DNA of 64,000 nt, from IMG/VR virus record IMGVR_UViG_3300029243_000160, positions 32,001 through 96,000 of that record, one strand, 5' to 3'. How positions within the stretch are numbered: position 1 is the first letter of the stretch; the number at the start of each line of letters is the position of its first letter. The notes beneath the pieces were generated by a model that was not told the origin of the DNA, did no database searches, and saw only the letters and a program-made list of their open reading frames with translations. Source of the stretch: a virus. Below, in pieces: positions 22,601 to 58,779 of the stretch. A program made the position numbers and the translations under genes.

Positions 22601-23658
22601 GACTGACTGTCTGTATGTACAGGCTCTGGAGCTGTACTCGGCATAGAAACAGGCTCATTGGAAAACGGATTCGTTTTTGCTTCCTGTGGCTCTGCTGTAG
22701 CTTTATCTGCAACCGTTGTCTGCTGTGATGTGAAATCTGGCTCTAAACCTTTGGGAATGTACCCTGTGTTATCATTGTGCTGTGTCGAACCATAATCAAC
22801 AGCTTCATCTGGTTGAACATCTCCATATGCAGAAAAAGGTTCTGTAGAAGACGTACTTTCCATGCCGAATGAGCTGTTATAGCTGTTTTCCGGAGCAGGT
22901 GCAACGGATTCTGCCTCAACCTGAGCATTTTCTGTAGTTTCTGCCTGCATCGGGTCTGCTACCGGAATATTCTGGTCATATACAGGCTCTGCTGTATCAG
23001 TATGCTCCGTATAAGAACTTTCGTAAGTGTCCGGCTCGCTATAGGCAGGTTCTGCTTCCGGAACAGGTTGGGCTGCTGCCTGCTGTGGTTCTGCGGTAAC
23101 ATCTGTAACAGCTTCCGTCATTTCCGGTTCAGCTGGCTTCGGCTTTTTTGCCTCTTCCTGTGCAGCAACATTCTCCAGTTGTCTGCGAAGGAAATCCTGC
23201 TCATCATGATTCAGCTTTGTTACCGTAGGCTGTTCCTGCTCCGGTTCAATCTTTTCACGAATCATAGCAGTTTTCGGAATTTCCACCATGTATTCGCCGT
23301 TGATTTTGACCGGAGATACCACGACATCATTTACGCCTTGGTCTTTCATGTACTGTGCAAAGTATAAAGCCTGATTCTTTGCACCGACAGCTCCGGAAAA
23401 AGCAACACGCTCATAGTCGTCCGGATTGTAACCACCACGCTGCTTTTGTTCCTGCTGACGTTCCTCATCTTCGTAAGGGTTGTAATCAGCTTTTTTCTTT
23501 GCAGCGTCTTCTCTTTCTTGTTCTTTTATATAGTCCTCATGAAGTCTGCCGAACATTTCGTCAGTTTCTTTTTGGACTTCGTTATTTGCAATCTTCTGCA
23601 ATTTGCTTGCAACCTCTGATGTAGCATTCACACCAAAGTTAAAAAATTCGATTGCCAC
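16624..23658 (-). CDS. Giant (2344 aa) conjugation-associated protein with a central TM segment and a C-terminal NlpC/P60- or CHAP-like hydrolase region
   Basis: Uninterrupted 7-kb ORF with a low-complexity Pro/Glu/Ser N-terminal third. TM stretch IGKYVAIGILFVATALTMFVVVMTII. C-terminal ALSWVGKAHY...NCTAGTAWDFIRMY...IIRHV...GTIYL resembles cysteine peptidoglycan hydrolases. Confidence 0.5.
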   Translation of the reverse strand: MAIEFFNFGVNATSEVASKLQKIANNEVQKETDEMFGRLHEDYIKEQEREDAAKKKADYNPYEDEERQQEQKQRGGYNPDDYERVAFSGAVGAKNQALYFAQYMKDQGVNDVVVSPVKINGEYMVEIPKTAMIREKIEPEQEQPTVTKLNHDEQDFLRRQLENVAAQEEAKKPKPAEPEMTEAVTDVTAEPQQAAAQPVPEAEPAYSEPDTYESSYTEHTDTAEPVYDQNIPVADPMQAETTENAQVEAESVAPAPENSYNSSFGMESTSSTEPFSAYGDVQPDEAVDYGSTQHNDNTGYIPKGLEPDFTSQQTTVADKATAEPQEAKTNPFSNEPVSMPSTAPEPVHTDSQSQPSPSYSGYTSSFEETSAESQNTAPTTPYSDFLSNYDNMKTLERIVETGEVRNDNDRRIMQEFVALTNNSFGGAVSAAESVNLTQQKEPEMTSVRLNENEKSFVQKSMDSTFMGQFLEDRPDVAEAMETIQEKGKITTPHERQMFLDYQNAMHDIATEFHAKTGTEWDSNGSLEAKSLASKASFMRTESAVQSLNQKFQTDDKHGASAKPQEHYRNVAKSAEQLIADFTEKTDIDVKQAGVHGQSDKSKEIQELRDEQEQGGLRAVESEEQKLFTYTFGQMGLFGKTVNKSINAVNDLAKYSAVATNKRIFEEATLRQETFERSSSSMRLGAAQKNRGIGKAIVFGNDMVVINGEIVTDEKIKGKVLAEHHKRVAQSAQILQESARRKEKVKEKQGEYDDAYKVKKDKYYATHQDELADFAKQEKKRKDAFDKKEDKRYADFIKSGRNPDEFIRREYQARGFYKKKKKIATEHISEKQERMVRNAQTIQNNLYRQEYAAPVVTKSGFRDGGSLDEIKNTINTGAIALGASVTIALSQPELDFIRKNKSSFTAEQRKVLEKVMRGESISVYHQKKVLSEWSETMKHAAETGKIKLSDDDAEVLKSLGNKVKLSDGEKAIFARYDKFAQNLKKDLNLDFIAGGITRADVLKINEAFLKRAESKGYQFITATGKFDVAALGNLTAKQLKELGISNSTRNALMQLNNPKAWGALDIGVAAKLAQKGMSGATKLAGNDEDMRAMISGGTKTYRYARKTTDGVKNTVKAIQKHQDAMKAKFANVKKTNRLKNVDSVKPPKKKPTTKKAAKPNPKRNERFLAKQEKKLARLQRSENSVFGKARGKINGIKAKFMNSKVGMLVQKVQAGVSKAMLVIGKYVAIGILFVATALTMFVVVMTIIESFTNFLAAKTYKDTVCYKLYESLEEQETSWKDTIVDYEGLWDDKANVTYGTKGMSYSDYLKRFDNLLEADTQIAINPWHQKDAVASLSNNTKYLTYLDAYNGEKELRMTANANLYGKLSPSADEAVYYSSTESGHTSNIKDIISMTDVMYQFETDANSDKELGDVLGMSPAELNWENFKNRFTGFFKMLGNNISEFVKNLFGGKEDTEPNYITWADASGTTFSYKTLQNYTATLFSASHQQTWDYTVKYCSRLGNPTVKVDGTKYEIDSLSESEAAELGYCTNPKVEDFYVGIESSSDDSPQPYIIGSDFKRYYTNHAGAFDITVDTNKNLNGSKNDLCLWSGMTSNKTTFDAVVTWISNHSGKCWSSKTVNPSSARISGGIFNYNLQNKNGKWFDSESGAKTDISNKLRSYRDTYHLPDDAYHIYREEGDYSVTRLTKDFATKSNSNPNVGTLKTNVVQTSSKQEKRCVYIQNATKYTTGNGYVYEQGGKAEVPILDYTDSTHLITDKTNDTWKDEVSAEQTNYNNINGKEKAYFYMPIPKNEDVNDFANNYLKDSSGNYLTIDKIYQKVKNRYQAGGNVYHINTTFVTNYMSWDDLNYMIGRVLTARGYTGQSYQDEYDLLTSVIWYRVAIQVNTNIKQYKKQYRYENGSIEIYRDSTTTLTRKCKGHSYQYCGGHLGVISRGNVFSMTNEQLALVGTYNEDYQFPVQMDWSDDRYDEIRGKVITDKVNYSGTVSDAAWSGGSETPASDVQGSYMGHSYGLNLYVEGGNWKEGFHVVGESDSEENKQYLCRDIFDVDEMVLKGSNCFGTKDWDDYEGWNGDNMTLAVLRQTMDWQDVYEFDIPTELGAKVLCQEDIDKIVDALKKKYGSSFNDSREQAVRIALSWVGKAHYNDEDGHNHGLVQSYCVAADRNFNANCTAGTAWDFIRMYSSWTGQTATQSNTIDNSKAIKSPSASLYLPADIIRHVRSVSAGALVSSDNVNIDANDVNEINNSGSNEALLMMKRDLAVVYIGELNEDLELSDGTTIKAGQSLTVDLSPNKDIGTIYLRRTDATSLCNIGKTKTYYYVKNPDGKTWLYRFDCDKYKAFEEARKEK

Positions 23659-35164: not shown

Positions 35165-35506
35165 TTATGCTTTGAAGCATCTGTTGCGGTCGATGGTGAA
35201 ACGGCTTGTGTTCCCAACTTTTCCGATTGTCACAAGGTCGGTGTATCGCTCTCGGAACAACCGAATTGCTCGTGCTACAGAAGCTTTTGAGTAATGCAGT
35301 GCCTGTGCAATCGTGTCAAGACTGCATACAAGCTCGTTTTCATCGTCCATTTTGGAAATAATGAATGCCAGTACCATGCCTTCCCTTGTGTCATTCATCA
35401 GCAACTCTTCATAGCGTTCCTGATAACCATGCTCCATGATAAGAGCATTCTCGTACTGCCGTTCCTGAAATGTCCCATCTGGAAGCAATATCCGATTATT
35501 TTTCAT
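35165..35506 (-). CDS. RepL-like winged-helix protein (paralogue 2)
   Basis: Start set at the ATG with RBS GGGGTGA. ...VCSLDTIAQALHYSKASVARAIRLFRE...VTIGKVGNTSRFTIDRN matches the wHTH layout of the adjacent RepL-like protein. Confidence 0.45.
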   Translation of the reverse strand: MKNNRILLPDGTFQERQYENALIMEHGYQERYEELLMNDTREGMVLAFIISKMDDENELVCSLDTIAQALHYSKASVARAIRLFRERYTDLVTIGKVGNTSRFTIDRNRCFKA

Positions 35507-35984
35507 CGTTATCACCCCATTCTTTCTTTGTAAGGATAATGTTTCCTTCAAACTCACAATACTGTACCTGATTTCCTTTGCCTTTCCACACTACATCAGG
35601 ATTGAGCAAGTACACGCTTGCACCGCCGCTTCTCTTGATTTGCAGAATGTTTTCTGATTCTAGCAAAGAGATTGCTCTCCTTACCGAAGACTTGGAAACA
35701 CCAAAGTATTCCATGAAAAACTGATAAGAAGTGACCAGTGCGTTTTTCTGATTCATCTTCTTCACAATCAAAAGATAAATTCTTGTTGCCAACGGAGAAT
35801 CTGCAATCTTCATCAGAACATCAAGCCTGTCAATGTTCTGCTGTGCAAATCTGCTGTATGCAGACTTTTCAGCTTGCTTTCTTTTTCGCATTTCTTCCTT
35901 TTCAGTTTCTCTCAGATACCGTTCTCGTTGCTCGAAAGTCATGTCAAAATCCTTTGTCTTTCCGACTGTGATTTCTTCTGCCAT
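35496..35984 (-). CDS. RepL-family plasmid replication/maintenance protein
   Basis: 162 aa. ...LLIVKKMNQKNALVTSYQFFMEYFGVSKSSVRRAISLLESENILQIKRSGGASVYLLNPDVVWKG parallels the firmicute RepL (pSN2-type) core as recalled. It lies next to the iterons. Confidence 0.6.
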   Translation of the reverse strand: MAEEITVGKTKDFDMTFEQRERYLRETEKEEMRKRKQAEKSAYSRFAQQNIDRLDVLMKIADSPLATRIYLLIVKKMNQKNALVTSYQFFMEYFGVSKSSVRRAISLLESENILQIKRSGGASVYLLNPDVVWKGKGNQVQYCEFEGNIILTKKEWGDNDEK

Positions 35985-36044
35985 GCCATTTCTCCCTTGT
36001 ATCTATATGTCAGAGATGACAAACATCTGTTCACCTCTGATATT

Positions 36045-36073
36045 ATTATAGCATAGCAGTGTACATTTGTCAA
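36045..36073 (-). promoter_or_regulatory. Consensus sigma-70 promoter for the RepL-like genes
   Basis: Minus strand TTGACA (36068-36073), 17 nt, TATAAT (36045-36050). Confidence 0.7.
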
Positions 36074-36081
36074 CTGTTAAT

Positions 36082-36099
36082 CTGTATAATATCCGTTAT
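36082..36099 (-). promoter_or_regulatory. ATAACGGATAT-type motif, copy b
   Basis: Minus strand ATAACGGATATTATACAGATTAA, 3 nt upstream of the -35 box. Confidence 0.6.
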
Positions 36100-36168
36100 C
36101 ATTGATGAATCCATTTTTGTACACTATGACTATTGACTTTTCTGAAAAAATCGCTACACCCACAAGTA

Positions 36169-36207
36169 AGTAGTCACAGTATGAACACGTTAGTAGTCAC
36201 AGTATGA
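36169..36207 (+). repeat. Pair of 16-nt direct repeats
   Basis: AGTAGTCACAGTATGA at 36169-36184 and at 36192-36207, 23-bp register. Confidence 0.8.
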
Positions 36208-36267
36208 CTACTCACTTTTCCGAAAACAACGCAATTTCGCCATTCTTCAAAAACGCCCTCTTATATC

Positions 36268-37060
36268 TATAGACTTCTATATCATAGCCGGACATTCCAG
36301 TCCTCTCCTATCAGTTTTATTGTCCGGTTGCTATACAGATTCCATAGACTTCTATTTCGCTGTCGAACATATCGCATTCCAATAGACATCGAACATTCGA
36401 CTTCTACTAGAAATCTATGATATAGACTTCTCAAACGAAGCTACGCTTCGTGCTTCGCCTTCCGGCTCAGCGACTGTTTGTCTGTGAGGCAGGTGTCCCT
36501 TCTATCTATGGTTTACAATGTCAAGTGAGGTTGCAGTCTTTGGGACAGGAATAGAAGTCGATGACACAGCACTCCCTCTCTCAAAGAGCAGGGGTCAAGG
36601 GCTACTCCCTTGTCGCTGAAAGCGAAATTGCTTTCTTATCTCACAGACAGCACCATAGACACAACTTTCAGTAAACTTGCACATTGCTGTTAATCTCATA
36701 GACTGCATCATAGACACCCTTAGACTTCGTGACACCGGAGAATGCTGGTTCATAGACTGTACCATAGAATACACGAAATAAATTAAGACAGCAGATAATA
36801 ATAATTACGAATGTCTATGAGTAATTATTATTATCTAAACTAGACTTCTAAATAGCATTCTATATAGACTTCTAACTAGACTATGTATTCTATGATTTAG
36901 ACTTCTATTAGACTTCTAATAGATAACTATATAGCTTTCTATTAGACTTCTATATCTTATTTTCTATATAGATTGCTATATATAAATATCTATATAGATT
37001 TCTATTAGCTTTCTATTATTTCACTTGCTATATAGCATTCTATATAGATTTCTATGAGGA
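36268..37060. repeat. Iteron field (candidate oriV or centromere-like site)
   Basis: More than 20 copies of (A)TAGACTTCTA and variants (TAGATTTCTA, TAGCTTTCTA, TAGCATTCTA, CATAGAC). They are densest at 36838-37056 and flank a GC-richer core at 36430-36650. No long ORF, and gene orientation flips here. Confidence 0.75.
36794..36835. repeat. Perfect 15-bp AT-rich inverted repeat
   Basis: GATAATAATAATTAC, 12 nt, GTAATTATTATTATC. Confidence 0.85.
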
Positions 37061-37309
37061 AAGCTGTTCTTTTTGATATATATCTATGTTATTTCATATC
37101 ATCGTTATGTGATTGTTTATAAATATCACTGCTTGTGTATGTCGTTTCTAAAGCTTCTTAGAGCCGTTCTGAGGGCTTCTGAAAGCTATCTGCTAAATTT
37201 CATCACAAACACTACAGAAAGCATTACAGACCGCCTGTGGACGTTCTGAACGGCTTTTGGATTATCTCGAACTTCCTGCGTTGGAAAAAGATGCTCGTGG
37301 CGTAAATCC

Positions 37310-37335
37310 GTTTTTCCCTTAAACCTTACATATAG
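37310..37335 (+). promoter_or_regulatory. 26-nt transfer-module motif, copy D
   Basis: Plus strand GTTTTTCCCTTAAACCTTACATATAG, upstream of the first plus-strand gene. Confidence 0.55.
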
Positions 37336-37413
37336 CAAGTGAGAACACGTTGAAGCCGTCCGTTGGTAAAGCGAATGGTTCTTGGAGATTTTACAAAGAA
37401 AGGAAGTTGTGAT

Positions 37414-37719
37414 ATGTGTTTGTCCCCTGATATTTATAAATACGGTTATCTCAAACAGGCTGATAAAGACAAGGTAGATATTGTGGAAATCGTGAAGCAG
37501 AGAACAATGGACGATTCCCTTGTGGAAGATTTCCTTGAAGCCAATCCTGCGGTCAGCTCTACGATGGAAAGTGTTTATGCAGAGTGCATCAGAAAGTTCC
37601 TTGCATATCAGCGTGAACGTGCGGAATATTACAAGGTCGATATAATTGTCGATTCCATTGATGGATATTCCGATGAAGAGTACCAAGCTCTCTGCGATAT
37701 GGCAGCAGCTGAAAAATGA
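37414..37719 (+). CDS. Hypothetical protein (about 101 aa)
   Basis: Start placed at the ATG preceded by AAAGGAAG. The track ORF begins at 37363. Confidence 0.5.
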   Translation: MCLSPDIYKYGYLKQADKDKVDIVEIVKQRTMDDSLVEDFLEANPAVSSTMESVYAECIRKFLAYQRERAEYYKVDIIVDSIDGYSDEEYQALCDMAAAEK

Positions 37720-38279
37720 AAGGATTTATCGTGATGAATAATTATAAATTAAACTGTGTCCCGATTCGGCAGGAACTGCTGGAGAAACTGGCGACTTTTG
37801 TAAGAGAAATGCTTCATGACATCAAAGGTTCTACTTCTCATGCGTATATCAATATGACTGCTGACGAGTTCTTATCGGTGTCTGATTCACACCTGAACTG
37901 GGAGAAAAGATGCCTGTCCAGTGAAGAAGACAAAGAACTCAGTGATAAGAGTTTTGATGATTTAGCTCTGATTAAGGACGCTATTATGCAGGAAGCTGAC
38001 TGCATTCCGGTTTTCCAGAATGATGAAGGCGAATGGTTCTACAATGTTCCGATTCCAGTTGTATGGAATGTTCCTGATACAGATAATGCGGTAATTCACG
38101 AACCGGAATACCTGTCTGACATAATGGAAACTATCTCCGAACTAAAAAACCCAGAAGCCAAAGAAACAACAGCACACAAAAAGGAAGGTAAAAACATGAA
38201 AAAGGCAATTATAATTACAACTGGCGTTTTAGCCATTATCGGCACTGTTGGTGCAATCGTTTACAAGAAAAGAAAGTAA
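37716..38279 (+). CDS. C-terminally membrane-anchored protein (187 aa)
   Basis: ATGA overlap with the upstream gene. C-terminal TM helix IIITTGVLAIIGTVGAIVY followed by KKRK. Confidence 0.55.
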   Translation: MKGFIVMNNYKLNCVPIRQELLEKLATFVREMLHDIKGSTSHAYINMTADEFLSVSDSHLNWEKRCLSSEEDKELSDKSFDDLALIKDAIMQEADCIPVFQNDEGEWFYNVPIPVVWNVPDTDNAVIHEPEYLSDIMETISELKNPEAKETTAHKKEGKNMKKAIIITTGVLAIIGTVGAIVYKKRK

Positions 38280-38280
38280 G

Positions 38281-38481
38281 TGCGAACCGGAAGTTCCAGA
38301 AAAATGCTGGGACGTTCGCAGTTCAAACTAAGGCGACTTAACGTCTTTGAGCCGAGATAGTGTGCGTAATCCTCTCTCTGGAGAGTAGCATTCACTCTCG
38401 GCAAGGTAAACTGCAAGACGCAGTTTGAAATCCTGCACATAAAATCCGTGCAGGCATCTTGTAAATATGTGCATCTTTGCT
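38281..38481. ncRNA. Structured ~200-nt region flanking the CRISPR array (candidate leader, tracrRNA-like or other ncRNA)
   Basis: Four successive stems: TGCGAAC/GTTCGCA (38282-38321), GCCGAGA/TCTCGGC (38352-38403), AAACTGC/GCAGTTT (38409-38427) and CCTGCAC/GTGCAGG (38433-38455). Contains GTGTGCGTAATC, resembling the repeat core TGTGCGTATC. No ORF. Confidence 0.35.
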
Positions 38482-38713
38482 GTTGCAACTTGTGCGTATC
38501 TGCGAGATGTAAGTTACCCGACCTGCCCTCGTCGGTGAACTCCCCGAGTTGCAACTTGTGCGTATCTGCGAGATGTAAGTTAAATGACAGCTTTTGTTTT
38601 TTACCGTTGATAAGTTGCAACTTGTGCGTATCTGCGAGATGTAAGGAGAATACAAAAGACACGATACTGCCAGCAACACCGGTTGCAACTTGTGCGTATC
38701 TGCGAGATGTAAG
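38482..38713. CRISPR. Orphan CRISPR mini-array, 4 repeats and 3 spacers
   Basis: Identical 32-nt repeats GTTGCAACTTGTGCGTATCTGCGAGATGTAAG at 38482, 38548, 38614 and 38682. Unique spacers of 34, 34 and 36 nt. The repeat holds the small palindrome ATCT-GCG-AGAT and the terminal palindrome GTTGCAAC. Confidence 0.85.
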
Positions 38714-38769
38714 CTATAAGGAGTTAAAGCCTTTAACAAAACAAAATAACAAGAAAGCAGGAATATAAA

Positions 38770-39141
38770 ATGAATGTTGCTGAAAAGACAATTGCAAAAA
38801 TTGCAAAGGAGCAGAAAAAGCTTGACACTTTGGTTGCCAAGCGTAATGAATACAATGCCAATGTTCAGGCGAAGCTGGACAGCATGAATGAGGACATCAA
38901 AGAGCAGAAAGCGGTTATTGCTGAACTCCGCAAGCAGGAAAAGGCTGAGAAGCTGGAAGCTATCAGCACTATGATGAATGACAAGGGCATTTCTGTAGAC
39001 GACCTGCTCAATGCGGTTGCAAACAACGACTTGTATGCAATTCAGGAATCAATGGAATCTTCCGAAAAGTCTGCAAGCGATTCCGAAAATACCGCTGGTG
39101 ATGACACTGCTGAAACGGTAAGTGCAAGCGATATTTTTTAA
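38770..39141 (+). CDS. Coiled-coil protein with acidic tail (123 aa)
   Basis: Heptad-rich, Lys/Glu-rich sequence. Function unknown. Confidence 0.55.
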   Translation: MNVAEKTIAKIAKEQKKLDTLVAKRNEYNANVQAKLDSMNEDIKEQKAVIAELRKQEKAEKLEAISTMMNDKGISVDDLLNAVANNDLYAIQESMESSEKSASDSENTAGDDTAETVSASDIF

Positions 39142-39170
39142 GAAAAATCACTCAAAAAAAGGATTGATAT

Positions 39171-40967
39171 ATGAAAAAGCCAACTAAGAAAAGAAAAGCT
39201 CTGCTTGCTCTTGTGATTGGCACAGTCCTTGTAAGTGGTTCGGCGTGGTTTGTCCACAGTCAGAGCAGTAGCAATGATATTGAGAAAATCACTTACACAG
39301 AATACATGGATTTAGTGAAAAAGGGCGATGTTGATACCGTGTTCTACAACGAGAACGATGAGTATATGACAGTTGCCCTTTTTTCTGATAAAACCAGAAA
39401 AATGACTGTCGAAGAACGAGAGAAGTACAAATACGATGATAACGATTATCTTCGAGAGGTAATCTATCCGGATAATGATGACTTCAAAGTCGATTTGCTG
39501 AAACAAGGCGTTTTGGTAAGAAAATCAAATAATAAGGCAACAGAATTTTTAGACCGATACGGTGATATTACACTGTTCTTTTTCCTTGCCGTTTTGATGT
39601 TCTGGATAATTTCTAAGAACTCCCCTGCTTCCAGCAAAGACTTCGCCCATATTATCAACGCCAAAGATATTGATGTTTCTTTTGACGATGTGATTGGACA
39701 TGACGAAATCAAGGACGACCTCAAACTGCTGGTAAAGCAACTGAAAAACGGTGCTGATGCCAAAGACTTATCTCATGGTGTTTTGTTTGAAGGCGGTGCT
39801 GGCACAGGTAAAACCATGCTTGCAAAAGCAATTGCTCATGAGGCAGGTGTCAATTTTATTTCTGCAAATTCCAGTGAATTTATCGAAATGTATGTTGGTC
39901 TGGGTGCAAAACGTGTCCGTGACCTGTTCAAGATGGCAAGAAAGCTTGCACCTTGCGTTCTGTTCTTTGATGAGATTGATGCTGTTGGTGCAGAACGTGG
40001 TTCTCAGAGAAGCAATCGTGAGAACGACCAAACTATCAATGCTATGCTGACAGAACTGGACGGCTTCGATGCCAGAGGCGATATTCTGGTGATTGCAGCA
40101 ACCAACCGAGCAGACACTCTTGACCCTGCCCTGCTCCGTTCCGGACGTTTTGACCGTCAAATCAGAATTGATATTCCAAAGAAATGGGAAACCCGAAAAG
40201 AACTCTTCCAGCTGTACCTGAAAGGAAATCCTATGGAAGAATCTTCGATTGATACGCTGGCAAAACAGACAGTCGGCTTTTCTGGGGCTGATATTGCTGC
40301 TGTATGCCGTGAAGCAAAAATGATTGCATTCCGTGAGGACAGCAAAACTATCACGCCTGACTTTTTGGAAGAAGCAATCGACAAAAAAGTCTTCAAAGGG
40401 AATCGTTCTGACGACAAGCAGCATGAAGATGACCTTGCCATTGTTGCCTATCATGAGGCAGGACACGCTGTCATGACACTTCTCTGCGGTAAAGAAGTGT
40501 CCAGAATTTCCATTATGGGTATGACAAGTGGCGTTGGCGGTGCAGTCTTCCAATCTGACAGTGACCGTTTCTTTGAAACAAAACACGAATACGAAAGTCA
40601 TGTGATGATTGCCTATGCAGGCAGAGCTTCTGAACAAATTCACTTTGGTTCTGATAACATCACGCAAGGAGCTTGCAACGATATTTCTCAGGCAACAAAA
40701 ACACTGATTGCTTATGTTGCAAAGTTCGGTTTTGACAGTGAGTATGGTCTGGTTGATATGGAAGCATTCCAGTCAACGTCATACGGTGACGATGTGCGGA
40801 AGCGTGTTTCGGAGCTTTCAAACAAGTTCTATGAAAAAGCACTGCATCTTCTTTCTGAAAATTACAATGCTGTAGAAGTTCTGGCACAGCATCTTTTGGA
40901 AGTAAAAACAATGTCCGGAGACGAAGCAAAGGAATTGATAGACCATGTTACGAAGAATCAAGCATAG
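39171..40967 (+). CDS. FtsH-like membrane AAA+ zinc metalloprotease
   Basis: Two N-terminal TM helices. Walker A GGAGTGKT, Walker B LFFDEIDA, SRH ATNRADTLDPALLRSGRFD, and zinc site HEAGHAV. Confidence 0.85.
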   Translation: MKKPTKKRKALLALVIGTVLVSGSAWFVHSQSSSNDIEKITYTEYMDLVKKGDVDTVFYNENDEYMTVALFSDKTRKMTVEEREKYKYDDNDYLREVIYPDNDDFKVDLLKQGVLVRKSNNKATEFLDRYGDITLFFFLAVLMFWIISKNSPASSKDFAHIINAKDIDVSFDDVIGHDEIKDDLKLLVKQLKNGADAKDLSHGVLFEGGAGTGKTMLAKAIAHEAGVNFISANSSEFIEMYVGLGAKRVRDLFKMARKLAPCVLFFDEIDAVGAERGSQRSNRENDQTINAMLTELDGFDARGDILVIAATNRADTLDPALLRSGRFDRQIRIDIPKKWETRKELFQLYLKGNPMEESSIDTLAKQTVGFSGADIAAVCREAKMIAFREDSKTITPDFLEEAIDKKVFKGNRSDDKQHEDDLAIVAYHEAGHAVMTLLCGKEVSRISIMGMTSGVGGAVFQSDSDRFFETKHEYESHVMIAYAGRASEQIHFGSDNITQGACNDISQATKTLIAYVAKFGFDSEYGLVDMEAFQSTSYGDDVRKRVSELSNKFYEKALHLLSENYNAVEVLAQHLLEVKTMSGDEAKELIDHVTKNQA

Positions 40968-41280
40968 AATTTGCGGTGTGTATGACATCGGCTACAGTTA
41001 CACTTTGGACACTTATGTGCTGGCAGTCAATGTACTTGCTCTTTGGCGGTATACTCGTTATTACTCCATCACAAAGGAAGAATACGATTTGCACAGAACA
41101 GCCAAAGGATTAAAAGAGCTGGACAATATTGCGTGGCAGTGTATCAGTGCAGAAAATCAGCATAAGCGTTTTCTTTGTTCTGATATGATGCCAGAAAATA
41201 CGCCGGAGCAGGAAAGCACTCATGCCAAACTGAGCGAAAGCCTCCAGAGGTATGACGCATCAAAAATCAAATTTATTTGA
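40945..41280 (+). CDS. Hypothetical protein (111 aa)
   Basis: ORF overlaps the FtsH-like stop by 23 nt. AAGGAA lies upstream. Confidence 0.4.
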   Translation: MLRRIKHRICGVYDIGYSYTLDTYVLAVNVLALWRYTRYYSITKEEYDLHRTAKGLKELDNIAWQCISAENQHKRFLCSDMMPENTPEQESTHAKLSESLQRYDASKIKFI

Positions 41281-41287
41281 AAGGAGA

Positions 41288-41857
41288 ATGATTGTGATTA
41301 CACATCTCAACCGTTTGGAATATATTCGTCTTCAAGTGGAAATAAAGCTATTTCCAACAAGAAAGCCAATCCGAGAATTTCACAATTATTTCCGCACTTT
41401 CAAACGACCAGAAGAATCTCTGGAAGATGACAGCTTCTGCTCTCCTTTCTTCGCAAACGGAGCAACGCTCACTCTCGGAGATTATTACGGCGACAGGGCA
41501 AATGCCATGCTTACAATTTTGCGTGAGTTGCAAACCAAAAGCTACATTTCCATGTACCTGTCGTATGACTTTCGATTTGTAAAGCCAAATACAGAGTACG
41601 ACACTGCCGGAGCTTTTCAAGAGATTCGGCAGTTCCTTGAAAATGCACTGTGGGGAACAGACCTGTATCTGTTCTTCATGGTATCGCATTTCAATCAGCT
41701 TATTGGAAAATCAGAAGAAGCCAAACCGGAACATTATCACGTTCTGCTTCGTCCTTGTGAAATGAAGGTTGACTTTTTGTCTGCTGCCAACAAGCTGTCT
41801 GAACATCTAAAGAAAAGCCCAATCATCGACCATATAAATATTGACGTGTCAATTTGA
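41288..41857 (+). CDS. Hypothetical protein (about 190 aa)
   Basis: RBS AAGGAG at 41281-41286. Start is either ATG 41288 or GTG 41294. Confidence 0.5.
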   Translation: MIVITHLNRLEYIRLQVEIKLFPTRKPIREFHNYFRTFKRPEESLEDDSFCSPFFANGATLTLGDYYGDRANAMLTILRELQTKSYISMYLSYDFRFVKPNTEYDTAGAFQEIRQFLENALWGTDLYLFFMVSHFNQLIGKSEEAKPEHYHVLLRPCEMKVDFLSAANKLSEHLKKSPIIDHINIDVSI

Positions 41858-41963
41858 CACAGAAAGGCTGAACACAATGGCTCATGTTGACTTATGCTTA
41901 CTGGAAGACTTCGTACACCCAAAGTTTCAAGAATTTTGGACTGAATAACGGCGGTGATAAGCT

Positions 41964-42500
41964 ATGAACGGTAACTGCCACTTCGTTTATGGTGCTTCCG
42001 TAGCCACTGCCCTGTCCATGAATATGGATAAGCTATCCGCAATCGTTCCCACCCTTGCCGTTTCTCCTGAAAACATCACATTGTTTATCTTTGGTGGCTT
42101 GATAGGCGGTATTTTTCCTGACCTTGACAACCCTACCAGCTATGTCGGAAAGCTATCCTCTCCATTAAGCAAGCTGTTTGGTGTGTTGGGAACAGCATCT
42201 GGTAAAACAGGAGCAAATCACAGAGGCATCTTGCATGACCCTCTTGTCTATCTTGTAGGACTATTTCTCTGCTGCCAGCACTTCACTCCACTCATCGGTT
42301 TTTTTATCGGTTGCTTATCACATCTGTTTTTAGATATGTTTAATCCGGCAGGTGTGCCATTCTTATTCGGTGTGAAGCATTTGCACCTGATGAAAATACC
42401 GTCCGGCAGTCGAGAAAGCGTGATTTTTACTTGGTTGAACGTAGTGCTGGTGCTGGTAGTTGGATTCGTACTCCAACTAAATCTTTTTCCTTTAACATAA
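41964..42500 (+). CDS. YdjM/DUF457-like membrane-bound metal-dependent hydrolase
   Basis: 178 aa polytopic protein with H..Y.., PDLD, HRGILHDP and SHLFLDMFN motifs typical of the family. Confidence 0.65.
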   Translation: MNGNCHFVYGASVATALSMNMDKLSAIVPTLAVSPENITLFIFGGLIGGIFPDLDNPTSYVGKLSSPLSKLFGVLGTASGKTGANHRGILHDPLVYLVGLFLCCQHFTPLIGFFIGCLSHLFLDMFNPAGVPFLFGVKHLHLMKIPSGSRESVIFTWLNVVLVLVVGFVLQLNLFPLT

Positions 42501-42760: not shown

Positions 42761-44461
42761 ATGGCTTGGGACAATAATGCAGAAACATTACTTGGCGAGG
42801 AACTGACCAATATTTTGGATAGCAATGATATTTCGGTCTATTCTGCCGAGCAAACCGAAAACGGTATGTCAATCGGTCTGGAGTTCTATTCAGACTTGGG
42901 CGAAGATGTAATCGTTGACATCGACTGCAAGGATAAGGACGACTTCGTAAAGAAGTTCGGAGAATATGCTCAGGACTTTGATGTAAACGAACACGCTGAA
43001 ATGTGGATTGAGGGACGTGGCACAAATGGTGTGCCGGAAAGTATCGCCGACTTGCTGGAAGATGCTCAATCCATTAAAAACTTTTTGGAACAGGTTTCCG
43101 ATGAACTGGAAGGAAAAGAACACACTCGTGAATCTGCGGAAGTTACCGTTTCCTTTGACAAAGAGGAACTGGATAAAATCGCAGCATTTGCAGAGCTGGA
43201 CGTTGACACGATGAGCGTAGAAGATTTAGCCGAAGCATTGCATAGCATCGTTGCTGAAATGGAAGCTCCGGAGCAGGAACAGACGGTTTCCAAAGAAGAA
43301 GTTATTGCGTGGGGCAAAGAAACGCTTAGTGACTTGACGAACGGAACAAACCAACTTGTAATTACACCGTCTGGATATGACGACTTCATTTCTTCTTCGA
43401 CTATTTTGAATGCTTTTCAGGAGTATTCAGGAAGCAAGCCGAAAGTCATACGACCAGAAAACACGTCTTTTTCAGACTATCTGTACGATGAGGTTCAGGA
43501 TTCCTTGTTTGATAATGTTATGTATCTGGAAGAAGACCTTGCATCACAGATAAAAACACTTGCCGAAGAAAAAGGCGATGCGTTCGTAGAGGCTCTTGAA
43601 AATCTGGACGAAGACTTGCCTTATGAGTTACTGGAACAGTTCGGCTATGAAGGAGCAACTGTAGATATGTCAGAGTTCCTTGACCACGATTATAAGGTAA
43701 ATCTCCTTCTGGCAACGGAACAGGAACTCAATTACGACAATACTTCTATTTCCAGAATGGCACACGGCATCATAGGCGAAGACGGCAAGCTGACATTGAA
43801 GGACTATAATGATTTTCATGATAAGACAGTCACTGCTGCCGACCAGCTTGAAACATATTCTGACAATGCCCTTTCCTACCTTGTACATCAGCAGGGGTAT
43901 ACCGTTGAAGAAATGATGCACACAGTACAGGCAAGAATCGCTGAAAGCAACTACGATACATCAGAATTTATTGAAAGCGTTGTCAATGAACTGGACGGCA
44001 CATATTCTGACTATAATGAACAGCTCACTGCTCTCATAAGCATCAATGGTAACAACCTTGTGGAGATGCTAGACAAGGTTGCAGAGGGCAAGGATAATAT
44101 TGTTCTTGGAACTGATACTGTAATCGGTCTGTATGACCGTATGAACGGTGCAGGTTCGGACTTTGAAATTCAATTGGAAGAAGATATGGTGATTCCGACT
44201 ACAATGGTTCAAATTGTTCAAATGGAATCCTCTGGAAGAAGTGATGTTGTAAGTTCAAAGGATAACATTGGATATTCTGTTGATGATACCTATGGCTTTG
44301 TAGGCACTCAGTGGCAGGATTCCTACAAAGGAATTACAGATAAAGCTCCGACTTTAGTACAAGAAAACATGAAGGAAACATACGAGAAGCTGAACAACTT
44401 CGAGCCTGAGAAAGACGATGTAATCAAAGATGACAAGGAAGACGATTTTGGACTGGATTAA
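42761..44461 (+). CDS. Acidic protein of unknown function (566 aa)
   Basis: Long ORF with RBS GAAAGGAA. Asp/Glu-rich throughout. Confidence 0.65.
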   Translation: MAWDNNAETLLGEELTNILDSNDISVYSAEQTENGMSIGLEFYSDLGEDVIVDIDCKDKDDFVKKFGEYAQDFDVNEHAEMWIEGRGTNGVPESIADLLEDAQSIKNFLEQVSDELEGKEHTRESAEVTVSFDKEELDKIAAFAELDVDTMSVEDLAEALHSIVAEMEAPEQEQTVSKEEVIAWGKETLSDLTNGTNQLVITPSGYDDFISSSTILNAFQEYSGSKPKVIRPENTSFSDYLYDEVQDSLFDNVMYLEEDLASQIKTLAEEKGDAFVEALENLDEDLPYELLEQFGYEGATVDMSEFLDHDYKVNLLLATEQELNYDNTSISRMAHGIIGEDGKLTLKDYNDFHDKTVTAADQLETYSDNALSYLVHQQGYTVEEMMHTVQARIAESNYDTSEFIESVVNELDGTYSDYNEQLTALISINGNNLVEMLDKVAEGKDNIVLGTDTVIGLYDRMNGAGSDFEIQLEEDMVIPTTMVQIVQMESSGRSDVVSSKDNIGYSVDDTYGFVGTQWQDSYKGITDKAPTLVQENMKETYEKLNNFEPEKDDVIKDDKEDDFGLD

Positions 44462-53776: not shown

Positions 53777-54157
53777 ATGAAAAACACAGTTGACCTATTT
53801 CGCATCTTCCAGCACGAACAGAAACGTGTTGGCGATAGCATGACAGTTTACTACAACATTGAAGAAAATTCCCTGCAATACAAAAACACCAAAGGCACTC
53901 TCACAGTGATATTTCATGCTTCTGATGCAGGCGAAGATTTCTATTATCAGAAGTTCGGGGAGCTTGTTTCAGAAAATGGCAAAAAGCTCGGAATCCTTGT
54001 GCAGAAAACTTATCATAACGGACAAAATGCACATTTGTTTCAAAACCCGATGACTGGCGGCTTGAAAATGTTTGAGATTCCGCAGGAGTTCATTGATATT
54101 GCAAGAGCATATCAATTCGACCGTGAATCTATTGGCTTGAAAGGAGAAACTGCATGA
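53777..54157 (+). CDS. Hypothetical protein (126 aa)
   Basis: Strong RBS AAAGGAG. ATGA overlap with the next gene. Confidence 0.6.
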   Translation: MKNTVDLFRIFQHEQKRVGDSMTVYYNIEENSLQYKNTKGTLTVIFHASDAGEDFYYQKFGELVSENGKKLGILVQKTYHNGQNAHLFQNPMTGGLKMFEIPQEFIDIARAYQFDRESIGLKGETA

Positions 54158-56547
54158 AAGGTAAATTCTACGCTTCCGGCGATTTGAAACAGCTGGAAAG
54201 CACATTGAAAGAACACGAACCATACGCTGTCCTTGTGGTGTCTACCACAGGGATTGACAAAGAGAACGAGTTTGAAGGACACTTTCCTACTCGTGTTGTT
54301 ATGAAGCAGTTTGAGTTTGATGACGAAACCAAAAGCTATCAGAGTGGCTTCACATTTGATAAGCTGGTGCAAGCTCCGCAAGAGGCAATCCAAGAGGCGT
54401 TGAAGAATGAAAGTTCTTACGATGTTTTTGCAAACGGTGGAATCGACAAAGAGGCGTATCTCCGTGGTGAAAATGTGCTGCCTGTTGCGGAATTTCAGAA
54501 AGAGTTTCAGACCGCAATTTCTGCGGTTCAGGAATCCAATGCTACCCTTATCATCAACAATCAAACTCACGCATTTCATTTCATGGACAAAATCCAGTCG
54601 GCTGATACGCTTCGTGAAATCAGGGAACAGGGCAAGACACTTGACCAAGTGAATCTGACCAGAGCATATTTCCGAAAGCACGATGTACAGGGACAGGCAA
54701 CATTGGAAGCTTTGCGGAATTATCGCATGAGTTCTCCTAAGAGTTCATTTCTTGCAACTGCGGATAAAGCAACACTGAAAGATTTGAGTGGTATGACAAA
54801 AGATGCTTTCATGGAAGCTCACCCAGATATTTCAGAATCCTCATACGATGTGACGAAGAAAGATTTTGACAGAAAATCTGCAAAAATCATCGGTGGAGAC
54901 CAGCGGATTCAGGTAATCAGCAACTTTATTACAGAGTATGGCAGAGAAGAAAAGATTCTGGAAAACGAATACCTCACCAGTATGCGTGAAAGCGATGCTG
55001 CCAAGACACGTCAGTGGTCTGAACGTGGTAAGGAAAAGTACCGTGAAAGCAATGTTGATGAGAAGTTCCAGACACTTATTAACAAGCACGTTATCAATCC
55101 GGAAAAAATTCTTGCAGGCGACAGTCAGTTCCACAAATTGATTGATGCAATTGAACACGGCGAAAACAAGGGCATTATGATGATTCATACTGCTACTACC
55201 GGATTCGAGAGAAAGGGGAACAGAACTGACACTGGATTCCCGATTCAGTTTGCAACAGCGGTTTATAAGCGTGGCGAAGAAGGCAAAATTGATATGTCAC
55301 ATAAAGCTGCTACAACCATGCTGATTCAAGCTCCTGCAAGAAGCATGGCAAACGCCGAAGAAAATATTCGTACCGGAAAATACGATACTTTCGCAGAATC
55401 CGGTATCAATATAGACGATTACAAAGCTGGCAAAGATGTCCTCAGCCAGTCAGAAGCACAGGAACGGATTCATAAAGTGTTCCAGATGTTTCCACCAGAA
55501 GACTATACCATTGTTACGTTCAGCAAAGACTTTGCTCAGAGAAGTCTCCAGCATCTTGGCAACTTCTCTGTAATCAATGAGCCGTCCATTGATGCTACAC
55601 AAGCAATCAAAGAATATGCCTATCTTGCAAGCCACGATGAGGCATATCATGGCGATGTTGCTCTGTTTGACATGAACAAAATGCAGGCTTTTGGCTTGAA
55701 TGATGTGGCTGAGAGCCGTGGTGCTGATGCTCCGAAATCTGCTATTTCAAAATGCTTACTGATGGGACAGCTCCTTGATGAAGCTGAACAACAGCAAATT
55801 GAACTCTTCCACCCACAGGATAAAGAGCAGACCTCGAAAGAATCCGATATTCCTCAGCAGAAAGAACCTGCTACGGAAAATGTGAAAGAATCTCCGGCAC
55901 AGGAATCTTCTCCTGTTCAGAAAGCACCAAAGGAACAGCCTGCTTCCGTTACTCCGCAAGAGGTTGCCGATGCAGAAGCAGCAATTCGGAAAGAATTTGA
56001 AAATGCTGCCAGTGAAAAAGCACAGCAGGAAACTGGAAAGGTTCGCAGATACCGCCGTGGGGAACAGCAAGAAGGAAATCGCAGAACAATTACTCGTGAG
56101 CCGTCAGAAAGTCGCCAGAAGCCTTCTCCTGCTCCACAGCAAACTATGCAAGCAGAAAACCTCGCCAAGACAAACGAAGCCTTAAACGGCGTTGTAGCGT
56201 CTCTGTCTGAGGCGTTGAGCAAGCAGACACAAAGCATGATTCAGATGCAATCAGAACTGATGCGGACAAATCAGCAGTTAATGGAAACCAATCAGCGTTT
56301 GGTATCGGCATTGGAGAAACAAAATGAAATCCTGCAATCTCTCACCGGAGAGCGTTCCGTTTCCAGAAAGCAGAATCCTGTGGAGAAAATTGAAAGCTTG
56401 AAGGAAGAGATTTCGGAAATGTCTGAAAATTTTCCTCGTTCGGCAGCAGCTTACATGACTTCTGCGAACAAAGCTCTGACAACAGCACAGCATGAATACG
56501 AGAAAAACGAACGAAATCTTGAAGTCGCTGACCGTTCGGCAAGCTAA
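54154..56547 (+). CDS. 797-aa protein with two DnaQ/DEDD-exonuclease-like segments lacking catalytic acids, plus a coiled-coil tail
   Basis: VLVVSTTGID...LIINNQTHAFHFMD and MMIHTATTGFE...IVTFSKDFAQRSL mimic the ExoI (DxETTG) and ExoII (hNa.FD..FL) layout, but the Asp/Glu positions are substituted. The C-terminus is Gln/Glu-rich coiled coil. Confidence 0.3.
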   Translation: MKGKFYASGDLKQLESTLKEHEPYAVLVVSTTGIDKENEFEGHFPTRVVMKQFEFDDETKSYQSGFTFDKLVQAPQEAIQEALKNESSYDVFANGGIDKEAYLRGENVLPVAEFQKEFQTAISAVQESNATLIINNQTHAFHFMDKIQSADTLREIREQGKTLDQVNLTRAYFRKHDVQGQATLEALRNYRMSSPKSSFLATADKATLKDLSGMTKDAFMEAHPDISESSYDVTKKDFDRKSAKIIGGDQRIQVISNFITEYGREEKILENEYLTSMRESDAAKTRQWSERGKEKYRESNVDEKFQTLINKHVINPEKILAGDSQFHKLIDAIEHGENKGIMMIHTATTGFERKGNRTDTGFPIQFATAVYKRGEEGKIDMSHKAATTMLIQAPARSMANAEENIRTGKYDTFAESGINIDDYKAGKDVLSQSEAQERIHKVFQMFPPEDYTIVTFSKDFAQRSLQHLGNFSVINEPSIDATQAIKEYAYLASHDEAYHGDVALFDMNKMQAFGLNDVAESRGADAPKSAISKCLLMGQLLDEAEQQQIELFHPQDKEQTSKESDIPQQKEPATENVKESPAQESSPVQKAPKEQPASVTPQEVADAEAAIRKEFENAASEKAQQETGKVRRYRRGEQQEGNRRTITREPSESRQKPSPAPQQTMQAENLAKTNEALNGVVASLSEALSKQTQSMIQMQSELMRTNQQLMETNQRLVSALEKQNEILQSLTGERSVSRKQNPVEKIESLKEEISEMSENFPRSAAAYMTSANKALTTAQHEYEKNERNLEVADRSAS

Positions 56548-57671: not shown

Positions 57672-58777
57672 GATACGCAATTGACAGCAAAGGAACAGTG
57701 CTTCCTCTCCCACCAAACCAAAATATGATACGTTTCATTCCGATTGAAGTTCGTGCAAAGGAACTTGTGAGATTCACTTCTGAATTTGCAGAACTCTTGA
57801 ACGGTGCAGGTATCAACACGCAAAATGCTAAGTATTGCTACATGATACAACCTCTCTACGCTTCGGAACGACTGGTTTATTTCACAAGAACAGAATTGTC
57901 TTCCAGTTCACAGGCAGTCCGCATGGCAAATGAGCTGGATAAGCACCCAGAATTGCTGAATCAGCCGGATATGCTCGAACTGCTCCAGAGCATCTTTCAG
58001 GACACTCGTGGCACTCCACGCTGGTATTTGATTTCTGTGGGATATGTTGAACTGGAACGCAATCTGTATGACTGCAAACGTATCAATTTGACATACCACC
58101 AACCAGTTTTCTTTCACAGATTTCAAAAAGTGATACAGAAAGAACAAATCACAAAGGAAGAACTGGAACTTGCTGTTCCGTGCGAGAAATATCGCTTTTT
58201 TTCAAATGATATAAACTTTTCCGACCGAGAAATGCTGATAGATATTGCTCTTGAAAGAGATATAGTTGGCGGTAAAGAATCTGTTTTTGATATGAAAGTA
58301 TATCAAGCCGTGAAGCAGTATCGGCAGATGAAGTTCTCTCAAAAGGACGTTTTCAGCAACACTGCCGCAAAATGCTTAAAGGACTTGAACACACACACCT
58401 CATGGAAAAAGAAAGATGTCTATATCGCTTATGACACAGCCAAAAAGCTGATAAAGAGCGTTTATAAAAATGCTTATGGCATCTGCTATAAAGATACCAG
58501 AATCACTGCTTACCTTACACCGGAGCGTTTTCTGACAATGTATGTTGGTGGTACACGAGACAGACCGTTGTACATCATTGACGGAAATTTTTTAACAATA
58601 GAACAGTTAAAAGATTATCTAATGAGCTTACAAGAGCTGCCTGTTGTTCCGTGGTTTGCGGATAAGGTGCAACCTTATATCGAAGTGAGGAAGCCTCAGA
58701 AGGCTTCCAAAGCCCAGAGAAACGTACTTCAATGGAACAAAAAGCGAAAAAAGAAGAAACCCAGAAAGGAAAAATAA
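57668..58777 (+). CDS. Hypothetical protein with basic tail (369 aa)
   Basis: ATGA overlap with the upstream gene. C-terminal KKRKKKKPRKEK. Confidence 0.55.
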   Translation: MRYAIDSKGTVLPLPPNQNMIRFIPIEVRAKELVRFTSEFAELLNGAGINTQNAKYCYMIQPLYASERLVYFTRTELSSSSQAVRMANELDKHPELLNQPDMLELLQSIFQDTRGTPRWYLISVGYVELERNLYDCKRINLTYHQPVFFHRFQKVIQKEQITKEELELAVPCEKYRFFSNDINFSDREMLIDIALERDIVGGKESVFDMKVYQAVKQYRQMKFSQKDVFSNTAAKCLKDLNTHTSWKKKDVYIAYDTAKKLIKSVYKNAYGICYKDTRITAYLTPERFLTMYVGGTRDRPLYIIDGNFLTIEQLKDYLMSLQELPVVPWFADKVQPYIEVRKPQKASKAQRNVLQWNKKRKKKKPRKEK

Positions 58778-58779
58778 CT

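Follow-up and report, generated by a model that had tools for sequence, protein, structure and literature searches.

A detached tracrRNA–CRISPR module, probably of a type V-F1 Cas12f system, on an integrative and conjugative element of gut Clostridia

The stretch of DNA analysed here, hereafter the window, comprises 64,000 nt (positions 32,001 to 96,000 of IMG/VR record IMGVR_UViG_3300029243_000160) and includes a short CRISPR array at 38482–38713. We consider it probable that this array and the sequence immediately to its left form a self-contained module (38280–38713) of trans-activating CRISPR RNA (tracrRNA) and CRISPR array, and that the module belongs to a type V-F1 (V-U3 branch) Cas12f system carried by an integrative and conjugative element (ICE) of gut Clostridia. 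Judging from homology, the array most likely serves the Cas12f whose gene starts 37.7 kb away on the same element. The system appears to be of a known kind, type V-F, in an unusual split layout with a detached, duplicated tracrRNA–array module; what goes beyond the routine is the dispersal of tracrRNA–arrays in multiple copies, the turnover of spacers with no visible Cas1–Cas2, and the wide occurrence of the carrier in the human gut. The original prediction, made from the letters of the window, had called the array an orphan and had offered three readings: a guide array for a Cas12f/TnpB-like nuclease encoded at 1–781, a mini-array borrowing host Cas proteins, or a decoy RNA interfering with host CRISPR. 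The first of these is now favoured by shared scaffold, repeat family and geometry, and the word orphan no longer applies, since a cognate Cas12f1 is encoded on the element and a complete tracrRNA copy at 38280–38481 had gone unnoticed.

Four exact plus-strand copies of the 32-nt repeat GTTGCAACTTGTGCGTATCTGCGAGATGTAAG were recovered, with spacers of 34, 34 and 36 nt and a start-to-start spacing of 66, 66 and 68 nt (Table 1), as had been read from the sequence. No further copy of the repeat was found within the window with up to three mismatches allowed, and none of 100 dinucleotide-preserving shuffles gave a match at that tolerance. The exact repeats and the spacer turnover between relatives described below bear out the view that this is a real CRISPR array. 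Its repeat length and 66–68-nt period agree with those of the cas12f-adjacent arrays of relatives. Profile searching of genomes, one for each species, yielded 41 cas12f loci; the majority belong to Ruminococcus, Oscillospiraceae, Lachnospiraceae and other Clostridia, and some to Bacilli. At most of these a scaffold homologue (detected with nhmmer) lies straight after the gene and is followed by a co-oriented array, and most related arrays consist of 32-nt repeats of the form GTTGCAA...GCGAG/GTAAG with a period of 65–68 nt, the last repeats being degenerate.

The gene at the left end of the window is cut by the window boundary, and its full-length product of 437 aa was obtained from contigs retrieved via the neighbouring gene, in which it is complete. 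A PDB sequence search with this protein matched AsCas12f over residues 20–427 (8J12, E = 1.3e-117; 7WJU and 8DZJ also at about 1e-117) and Al3Cas12f (9NZQ, 1.4e-109), with TnpB (9NZP, 4e-34) and LaTranC (1e-5) far behind. The RuvC D/E/D residues and the CxxC..CxxC zinc ribbon are conserved and the motifs GVDLG, IQMEKL and NADYNAS are present, so that the compact effector (about 400–500 aa) with tri-split RuvC and Zn-ribbon that is a feature of type V-F1 is found in a 437-aa protein. The earlier description of the nuclease as Cas12f/TnpB-like is thus made more definite by the PDB matches, and the gene running from 781 to 1 can be assigned by homology to Cas12f1 of the AsCas12f/type V-U3 clade. 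The status of a TranC or TnpB intermediate was considered and rejected on the difference between the LaTranC and AsCas12f matches.

The link between this effector and the distant array is provided by the sequence in front of the array. Positions 38279–38481 are 78% identical over about 205 nt (E = 8e-38) to the region directly 3' of cas12f in contig L016 (L-numbers are labels of comparison contigs and loci), and the scaffold directly abuts the first repeat at 38481/38482. The scaffold has a minimum free energy of −102 kcal/mol (z = −6.4 against shuffles). When 20 scaffolds were aligned, 24 of the 31 predicted pairs proved to have changed at both partners and 92.6% of cells are paired, against 29–49% when the partners are slid by one to three columns; none of 500 shuffles reached the observed values, and the window scaffold retains every position that is invariant in the family alignment. 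A hidden Markov model (HMM) of the 20 sequences aligns, at 18 bits, to nt 18–114 of the published AsCas12f1 single-guide RNA (sgRNA), whose sequence was taken from the supplement of PMC8548392; the motifs common to both are CGAGA and CTCGGTAAGGTA. It was the broader model that matched in nhmmer, a narrow nine-sequence model having missed the As sgRNA. Near its 3' end the scaffold contains an anti-repeat that forms 18 of 19 possible pairs with the repeat, five of them G-U. At the sequence level, then, a long structured tracrRNA with an anti-repeat lies beside the array, as is characteristic of type V-F1. Between anti-repeat and first repeat there are no more than 8 nt, so that a read-through transcript would constitute a natural single-guide RNA for the first spacer. 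Rfam, searched with the whole window at gathering thresholds and with 38250–38780 at E ≤ 10, gave chance matches only (mir-M7 at 21.5 bits against a cut-off of 91 bits, and one small nucleolar RNA).

The similarity of the window copy begins at AGTGCGAACCGGAAGTTCC, which in the gene-proximal copy encodes the Cas12f C-terminus. Since the similarity starts within the coding end of cas12f, the window unit can be understood as having arisen by duplication of that 3' end together with scaffold and array, and in it 38280–38321 appears to be the footprint left by the copied gene end; the module would accordingly be a paralogue of the tracrRNA–array unit directly after cas12f1. That unit was seen in L015–L018, where cas12f is followed by about 200 nt of non-coding scaffold and then by 32-nt repeats GTTGCAATCTGCGTATAGGCGTAAGATGTGAG, present as one or two full copies and one truncated copy. 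A third module, with one repeat, GTTGCAGCTCGTGCGTAAGTGCAAGATGTAAG, and without the 5' hairpin, follows after another 1.5 kb, in the gap between the gene for an ERF recombinase and its neighbour. Arrays are present in all three modules of the element, and all modules beside cas12f are co-oriented with it. Separation of guide module and gene is not unique to this element: in L029, which has an unrelated backbone and a Cas12f 57% identical to that of the window element, cas12f is followed by a terminator-like hairpin with no adjacent scaffold or array, and two scaffold–array modules lie 4.2 kb upstream and 3 kb downstream of the gene.

The third module (L016:13784–14046) is flanked by the ERF gene and an 80-aa gene, a short way beyond the left end of the window. 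Its 31-nt 'spacer', GGTGAGGTATGTTGCTCATGGCAACAGGAAA, is identical in four contigs and is followed by a chimera of the stem-4 hairpin and the repeat 3' end; no target for it was found in the DNA compared, and the module may represent a fixed guide or else an array in decay. Downstream of the ERF gene, at L016:13520–13590, there is also a tRNA-like stretch, GCCGACATAGCTCAATGGCAGAGCG...GGTTCGATTCCTGTTGTTGGC, which was not called by ARAGORN (no tRNA was found by this program in the window, L016 or L029) and which may be a tRNA fragment or an attachment-site remnant.

Table 1. Positions, in the window, of the detached module, of the effector gene and of features around the array
Feature	Position	Strand	Basis or remark
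cas12f1, 5' part (260 codons)	1–781	−	gene runs off left window end
RepL-type replication protein	35496–35984	−	Pfam
AT-rich tandem-repeat ('iteron') field	36841–37055		1.43 kb upstream of array
Candidate sigma-70-type promoter TTGATA-18-TATCAT	37073–37102	+	consensus match only
5' hairpin of duplicated module (GTGCGAACCGGAAGTTCC...)	38280–38321	+	same sequence ends cas12f in proximal copy
tracrRNA-like scaffold core (stem-loops, anti-repeat, linker)	38322–38481	+	homology, fold, covariation
Anti-repeat CATCTTGTAAATATGTGCA	38455–38473	+	pairs with repeat nt 10–28
Linker TCTTTGCT, 8 nt, anti-repeat to first repeat		+	sequence
Repeats	38482–38513, 38548–38579, 38614–38645, 38682–38713	+	exact sequence identity
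Spacers (34/34/36 nt, all unique)	38514–38547, 38580–38613, 38646–38681	+	between repeats
FtsH-like AAA+/M41 protease	39171–40967	+	Pfam scan; after H-NS-like gene

The plus strand is predicted to be the transcribed strand of the array. A minus-strand reading, in which the repeat would end in ...GTTGCAAC, had been put forward earlier and is contradicted by several independent features. The homologous arrays are co-oriented with cas12f, the tracrRNA and leader lie to the left of the array, spacers turn over on the leader side, and the degenerate terminal repeats of relatives are at the right end. In addition, the G-U pairs of the anti-repeat duplex exist solely in plus-strand RNA (the duplex amounts to −23.3 kcal/mol with plus-strand RNAs and to −9.8 kcal/mol with their minus-strand counterparts), and the T-rich flank of a perfect protospacer is on the side expected for a plus-strand CRISPR RNA (crRNA).

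The array lies in front of a gene, starting with an ATG at 38770, for a 123-aa protein with an H-NS N-terminal-like domain (Pfam), the gap from the last repeat being 56 nt; this position, close to an FtsH-like protease gene and about 1.4 kb from the iterons, agrees with the setting first described. An H-NS-like protein of identical sequence is encoded in 681 blocks of the assembly collection, chiefly from metagenomes of the human gut. Ten contigs of this kind have near-identical flanks, yet their arrays contain one, two or four repeats with different spacers, and 11 distinct spacers were counted at the array site over thirteen sibling arrays. The spacer adjoining the H-NS-like gene (GAGAATAC...), at 38646–38681 in the window, is the oldest, being common to the window, L004, L008 and L010; L004/L008 and L010/L013 also have the middle spacer in common and differ just at the upstream-side spacer, while each single-spacer array has a different spacer. 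Turnover polarised in this manner is that of a living CRISPR array with its leader at the left. Comparison of related elements, proposed with the original prediction as a check, has thus revealed leader-polarised exchange of spacers and not the unchanged 'spacers' of a conserved intergenic repeat structure.

Several further observations concern the arrays and their repeats. In L063–L065, chromosomal relatives with Cas12f 69% identical, the layout of gene, tracrRNA and array is retained, and array length and first spacer differ from sample to sample; as these arrays vary with cas1 and cas2 absent within 10 kb, turnover without linked adaptation genes seems to be general in the clade. Nine of the 11 distinct spacers at the array site start with T and the remaining two with G (window 38514 and 38580, and siblings), a bias for which either a functional repeat of 33 nt or co-integration with the spacer of a nucleotide derived from the protospacer-adjacent motif (PAM) could account. 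A 5-bp hairpin within the repeat (helix 7; alignment columns 264–278, window about 38491–38505) covaries across the family; since it overlaps the segment used for anti-repeat pairing, the repeat may be able to adopt either of two conformations. A hairpin of the whole repeat as a Cas6-type processing signal was rejected, the anti-repeat duplex being preferred, since repeat variants break the hairpin and the system is tracrRNA-dependent.

A search for targets gave a divided result: the window's own spacers went without a match, and a spacer from a sibling array had a perfect one, flanked 5' by T-rich sequence. The 13 spacers of the element, concatenated, gave no phage or plasmid match at E ≤ 0.5. 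When IMG/VR was scanned with the first 24 nt of seven spacers, six, including all three of the window, had no match and the seventh matched three contigs. The leader-proximal spacer of L010/L013 has a 33/33 match in three IMG/VR contigs, with AATCTT as 5' flank, inside the gene for a 418-aa Mob_Pre (MobV-type) relaxase. The element bearing this protospacer also encodes a Rep-like protein and large serine recombinases, three or four in number, and its relaxase is just remotely related to that of the window element; such a target resembles a mobilisable competitor more than it does a phage. About 97 of 145 spacers from related systems were also queried, and a spacer of a detached array in L029 was found to match a human-faecal phage at 32 of 33 positions, with ATATTC as 5' flank. 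These flanks point to a T-rich 5' PAM as a candidate; for type V-F1 the trait looked for is crRNA:tracrRNA-guided cleavage of double-stranded DNA that depends on a T- or C-rich PAM on the 5' side. V-F systems are reported to be enriched on plasmids, adaptation modules to be often missing on plasmids, and plasmid spacers to be biased towards plasmids (PMC9071438), and the picture here fits all three reports.

Our working model is that the plus strand would be transcribed through the scaffold into the array, and that the anti-repeat would pair with repeat nt 10–28, in cis at the first repeat, so that a natural single-guide RNA would result, and in trans at the later ones. A Cas12f dimer would bind the scaffold and duplex, with roughly 20 nt after each repeat as guide, and the complex would be expected to cut double-stranded DNA next to a T-rich 5' PAM. 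The targets would be other mobile elements and phages, and the element would in this way protect the host cell and its own residence from competitors. A candidate promoter (Table 1), with small open reading frames (ORFs) at 37363–37719 and 37716–38279 downstream of it, could drive tracrRNA, array and the H-NS-like and FtsH-like genes as one transcript, a suggestion made tentatively as promoter-like matches in the region are fewer than in shuffled sequence; no terminator-like site was found on the plus strand between this promoter and the array.

A number of points weigh against this model. The three spacers of the window are without match in the phage, plasmid and IMG/VR collections, and the candidate PAM rests on two protospacers from two different orthologues. 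The cas12f-proximal and window repeats differ at 11 of 32 positions, and it is from the shared scaffold that we infer cross-use of one Cas12f by the window module; transcription of the module, like the processing and loading of its RNAs, is likewise presumed from sequence, and the sole promoter-like site is a weak consensus match 1.2 kb upstream. In L002 a rearrangement leaves just the last 55 nt of the scaffold before the array, so that the module is not intact in every relative. Finally, no cas1 or cas2 to which the spacer turnover could be ascribed was found in the window or in 10 kb to its left; to the right, about 0.6 kb past the window end, one contig passes into housekeeping genes of the chromosome (for lysyl-tRNA synthetase, GreA, trigger factor and NrdD). 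In agreement with the original prediction, no Cas1, Cas2, Cas4 or multi-subunit effector was found among about 50 window ORFs (Pfam), ORFs below about 95 aa, the size of Cas2, not having been systematically scanned; nor did cas1, cas2 or cas4 appear in the adjoining 10 kb to the left or in 10 kb to either side of the chromosomal relatives.

It is interesting to speculate that tracrRNA and array together make up an autonomous, duplicating guide cassette that evolves its own repeat and anti-repeat, drives large rearrangements by recombination and gains spacers without linked Cas1–Cas2. Because the tracrRNA gene doubles as the array leader, the whole unit would be copyable around a mobile element, and there are three guide modules in the window element and two in the unrelated element of L029. 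The copy at 38280–38713 stands at the head of a plus-strand block with genes for the H-NS-like, FtsH-like and polyvalent (LPD) proteins; it might for this reason be expressed together with genes required soon after the element enters a cell by conjugation, and so equip it against competitors already resident there. Nevertheless we regard this whole reading as an unlikely elaboration of the model. Also unlikely is the proposal that the window module is a decaying, non-functional duplicate, born of a duplication or recombination that took in the 3' end of cas12f, the tracrRNA and the array, and now a relic or recombination substrate with no guided interference. The useless footprint of the cas12f 3' coding end, the tiny arrays of one to four repeats, the lack of targets for the window's three spacers and the position of the L002 junction, exactly in the scaffold stem-4 hairpin, would all suit such a relic. 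They have to be set against four identical repeats, a scaffold with all family-invariant positions in place, leader-polarised spacer differences among near-identical elements, a sibling spacer perfectly matching a co-occurring type of mobile element, and a phage-matching spacer in a detached array of L029. The L002 junction itself (L002:9700–9850 compared with L016:13976–14090 and window 38426–38481) falls in the hairpin CTGCACATAAAATCCGTGCAG; what it puts beside the array is the 5' region, inverted, of the 80-aa gene that normally lies beyond cas12f and ERF. About 40 kb were deleted or inverted, apparently when two guide modules recombined with each other.

The other two readings of the original prediction are not supported. 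That an array on a mobile element should use host Cas proteins in trans would be in keeping with the absence of adjacent cas genes, with known mobile-element arrays that borrow host machinery (PMC9071438), and with the probable need of spacer acquisition for machinery from elsewhere. A relaxed form of the repeat, GTTGCAACNNGTGCGNNNNNGCNNGNTGTAAG, was however without match in one genome each of 185,579 species (GTDB; as an exact pattern scan, this misses diverged repeats), so that no repeat like that of a host CRISPR–Cas locus came to light, and its four matches in a metagenome contig collection are all copies of the same module. The element moreover encodes a cognate effector, cas12f1, with an array of the same family beside it, and repeat family, tracrRNA and geometry of the window module are those of this Cas12f; borrowing from the host is accordingly very unlikely. 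Least credible of all is a repeat decoy, that is, an RNA anti-CRISPR that would sequester a host Cas protein. Solitary-repeat decoys have been reported as RNA anti-CRISPRs, and a mobile element with short arrays whose repeats are perfect is reminiscent of them. A decoy would have repeats with no evolving spacers, whereas here the spacers turn over from the leader side and one of them matches a competitor element; the cognate effector is on the element, the module contains a full tracrRNA, and the same genome scan found the repeat in no host. A further alternative is that the scaffold and first repeat act as a single-guide RNA, or the array transcript as a 5' leader, to control the H-NS-like/FtsH-like operon or cas12f instead of conferring immunity. 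With Cas9, natural guides derived from tracrRNA are known to repress cas promoters. The array is co-oriented with the H-NS-like gene that follows it, with no terminator found between them, and this linkage is retained in ten of ten relatives examined, including the rearranged L002. Neither spacers nor trailing sequence have even a partial match elsewhere in the element, though, the spacers vary between strains as a fixed regulatory guide would not, and the RuvC site of Cas12f is intact, all of which makes a regulatory role quite improbable. Guided interference by the element's own Cas12f thus remains our preferred explanation.

The system proposed is closest to those of AsCas12f1 (Acidibacillus sulfuroxidans) and Al3Cas12f, of type V-F1/V-U3. 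The effectors are homologous over their full length (about 1e-117 and 1e-109), and, as is found or predicted for the window system, a long structured tracrRNA with an anti-repeat lies between gene and array, the crRNA consists of the repeat 3' part and spacer, and the hosts are Clostridia or Bacilli (PMC8548392, PMC7229846, PMC13186708). The AsCas12f1 tracrRNA, of 169 nt, lies between gene and array and carries the anti-repeat, and the crRNA is made of partial repeat and spacer (PMC8548392); the enzyme uses a 5'-NTTR PAM and a 20-nt guide (PMC11662939), and Al3Cas12f-type enzymes have T-rich PAMs (PMC13186708). V-U3 systems in general are without adaptation genes and occur in Clostridia and Bacilli (PMC7229846). 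The absence of cas1, cas2 and cas4 is what sets V-U3 apart from the Cas14-type V-F loci; among about 50 ORFs of the window and in 10 kb to its left none of the three was found. The window system, known from sequence alone, differs in being on an ICE with at least three tracrRNA–repeat modules, one of them 37.7 kb from the gene, in having an anti-repeat just 8 nt from the first repeat, and in its arrays of one to four repeats.

Other comparisons are more distant. Plasmid-borne type IV and V-F systems, with which mobile elements compete against each other (Pinilla-Redondo et al., PMC9071438, PMC7038947), resemble it in the conjugative carrier, the short arrays, the failure to find cas1–cas2 and in the aim of at least one sibling spacer at a relaxase gene that belongs to a different mobile element. 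Here, unlike in type IV, the effector is a Cas12f nuclease and not a type IV complex, and the two targets found, a mobile element and, in a relative, a phage, are too few for a bias in targeting to be claimed. Guide units away from the effector and acting in trans are also seen as the delocalised or atypical crRNAs of V-K CRISPR-associated transposons and as multiple arrays per type I cas locus; those are fixed homing guides without their own tracrRNA, whereas the window unit has a complete tracrRNA and variable spacers. The solitary mini-arrays with which viruses and plasmids exploit host Cas are similarly small, on a mobile element and free of adjacent cas genes, but the window repeat matches no host system in the genome collection, and effector and tracrRNA are on the element. 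With TnpB–omegaRNA systems of IS200/IS605 the window system has in common the protein fold family, the GenBank label 'transposase', and a cas12f-proximal scaffold overlapping roughly the last 29 nt of the ORF in the manner of omegaRNAs. In place of the single fixed guide of TnpB, with neither array nor anti-repeat duplex, the window locus has arrays with turnover and an anti-repeat duplex, and its closest match is a validated Cas12f1.

An apparently orphan array thereby becomes interpretable as part of a very common gut ICE with a hypercompact Cas12f and dispersed guide modules. With the effector labelled 'transposase' and the tracrRNA without an Rfam family, arrays of this kind would routinely be called orphan. 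AsCas12f1 prefers 45–55 °C, and a Cas12f1 orthologue with defined tracrRNA and repeat and a candidate T-rich PAM is now available from an organism of the 37 °C gut. The findings add to the evidence that integrative elements, like plasmids, turn CRISPR on other mobile elements, and the element is a natural case for how adaptation-less type V-F systems renew their spacers.

The backbone of the element is of the Firmicutes conjugative type, with a Mob_Pre relaxase, coupling protein, PrgI, topoisomerase III and an LPD polyvalent protein. Megablast of 36000–42000 against plasmid and phage collections gave no match, nor did the exact repeat in IMG/VR. The chromosomal genes beyond the right end indicate that the element is integrated there and is an ICE, not a free plasmid. 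Its host is a human-gut member of the Clostridia, probably a Coprococcus: clustered at 90% identity, the Cas12f falls together with a GenBank protein of Coprococcus sp. AF38-1 (the isolate behind RJW77539.1), the one annotated 'transposase'. The RepL-family gene and the tandem-repeat field beside it, with units of 11–12 nt and of 63 nt, are presumed to be the replication origin, though the element is found chromosomally integrated. Within the conjugation region, an ORF of 2344 aa (16624–23658, minus strand) has zero Pfam matches. ORFs of 962 aa (58732–61620), 797 aa (54154–56547) and 566 aa (42761–44461) are likewise without significant match. The continuations of two contigs differ, that of L060 (13153–14756) leading into housekeeping genes and that of L061 (12945 onwards) into a Tn916-type integrase/Xis and further mobile-element genes, which indicates that the element is in different contexts, or next to another element, according to the sample. 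Within 3.5 kb of cas12f there are genes for a weakly matching HEPN-domain protein (2144–2764) and a staphylococcal-nuclease-domain protein (3365–4087), both on the minus strand; their synteny is maintained in L062, whose Cas12f is 82% identical, and they may represent an additional defence or nuclease module.

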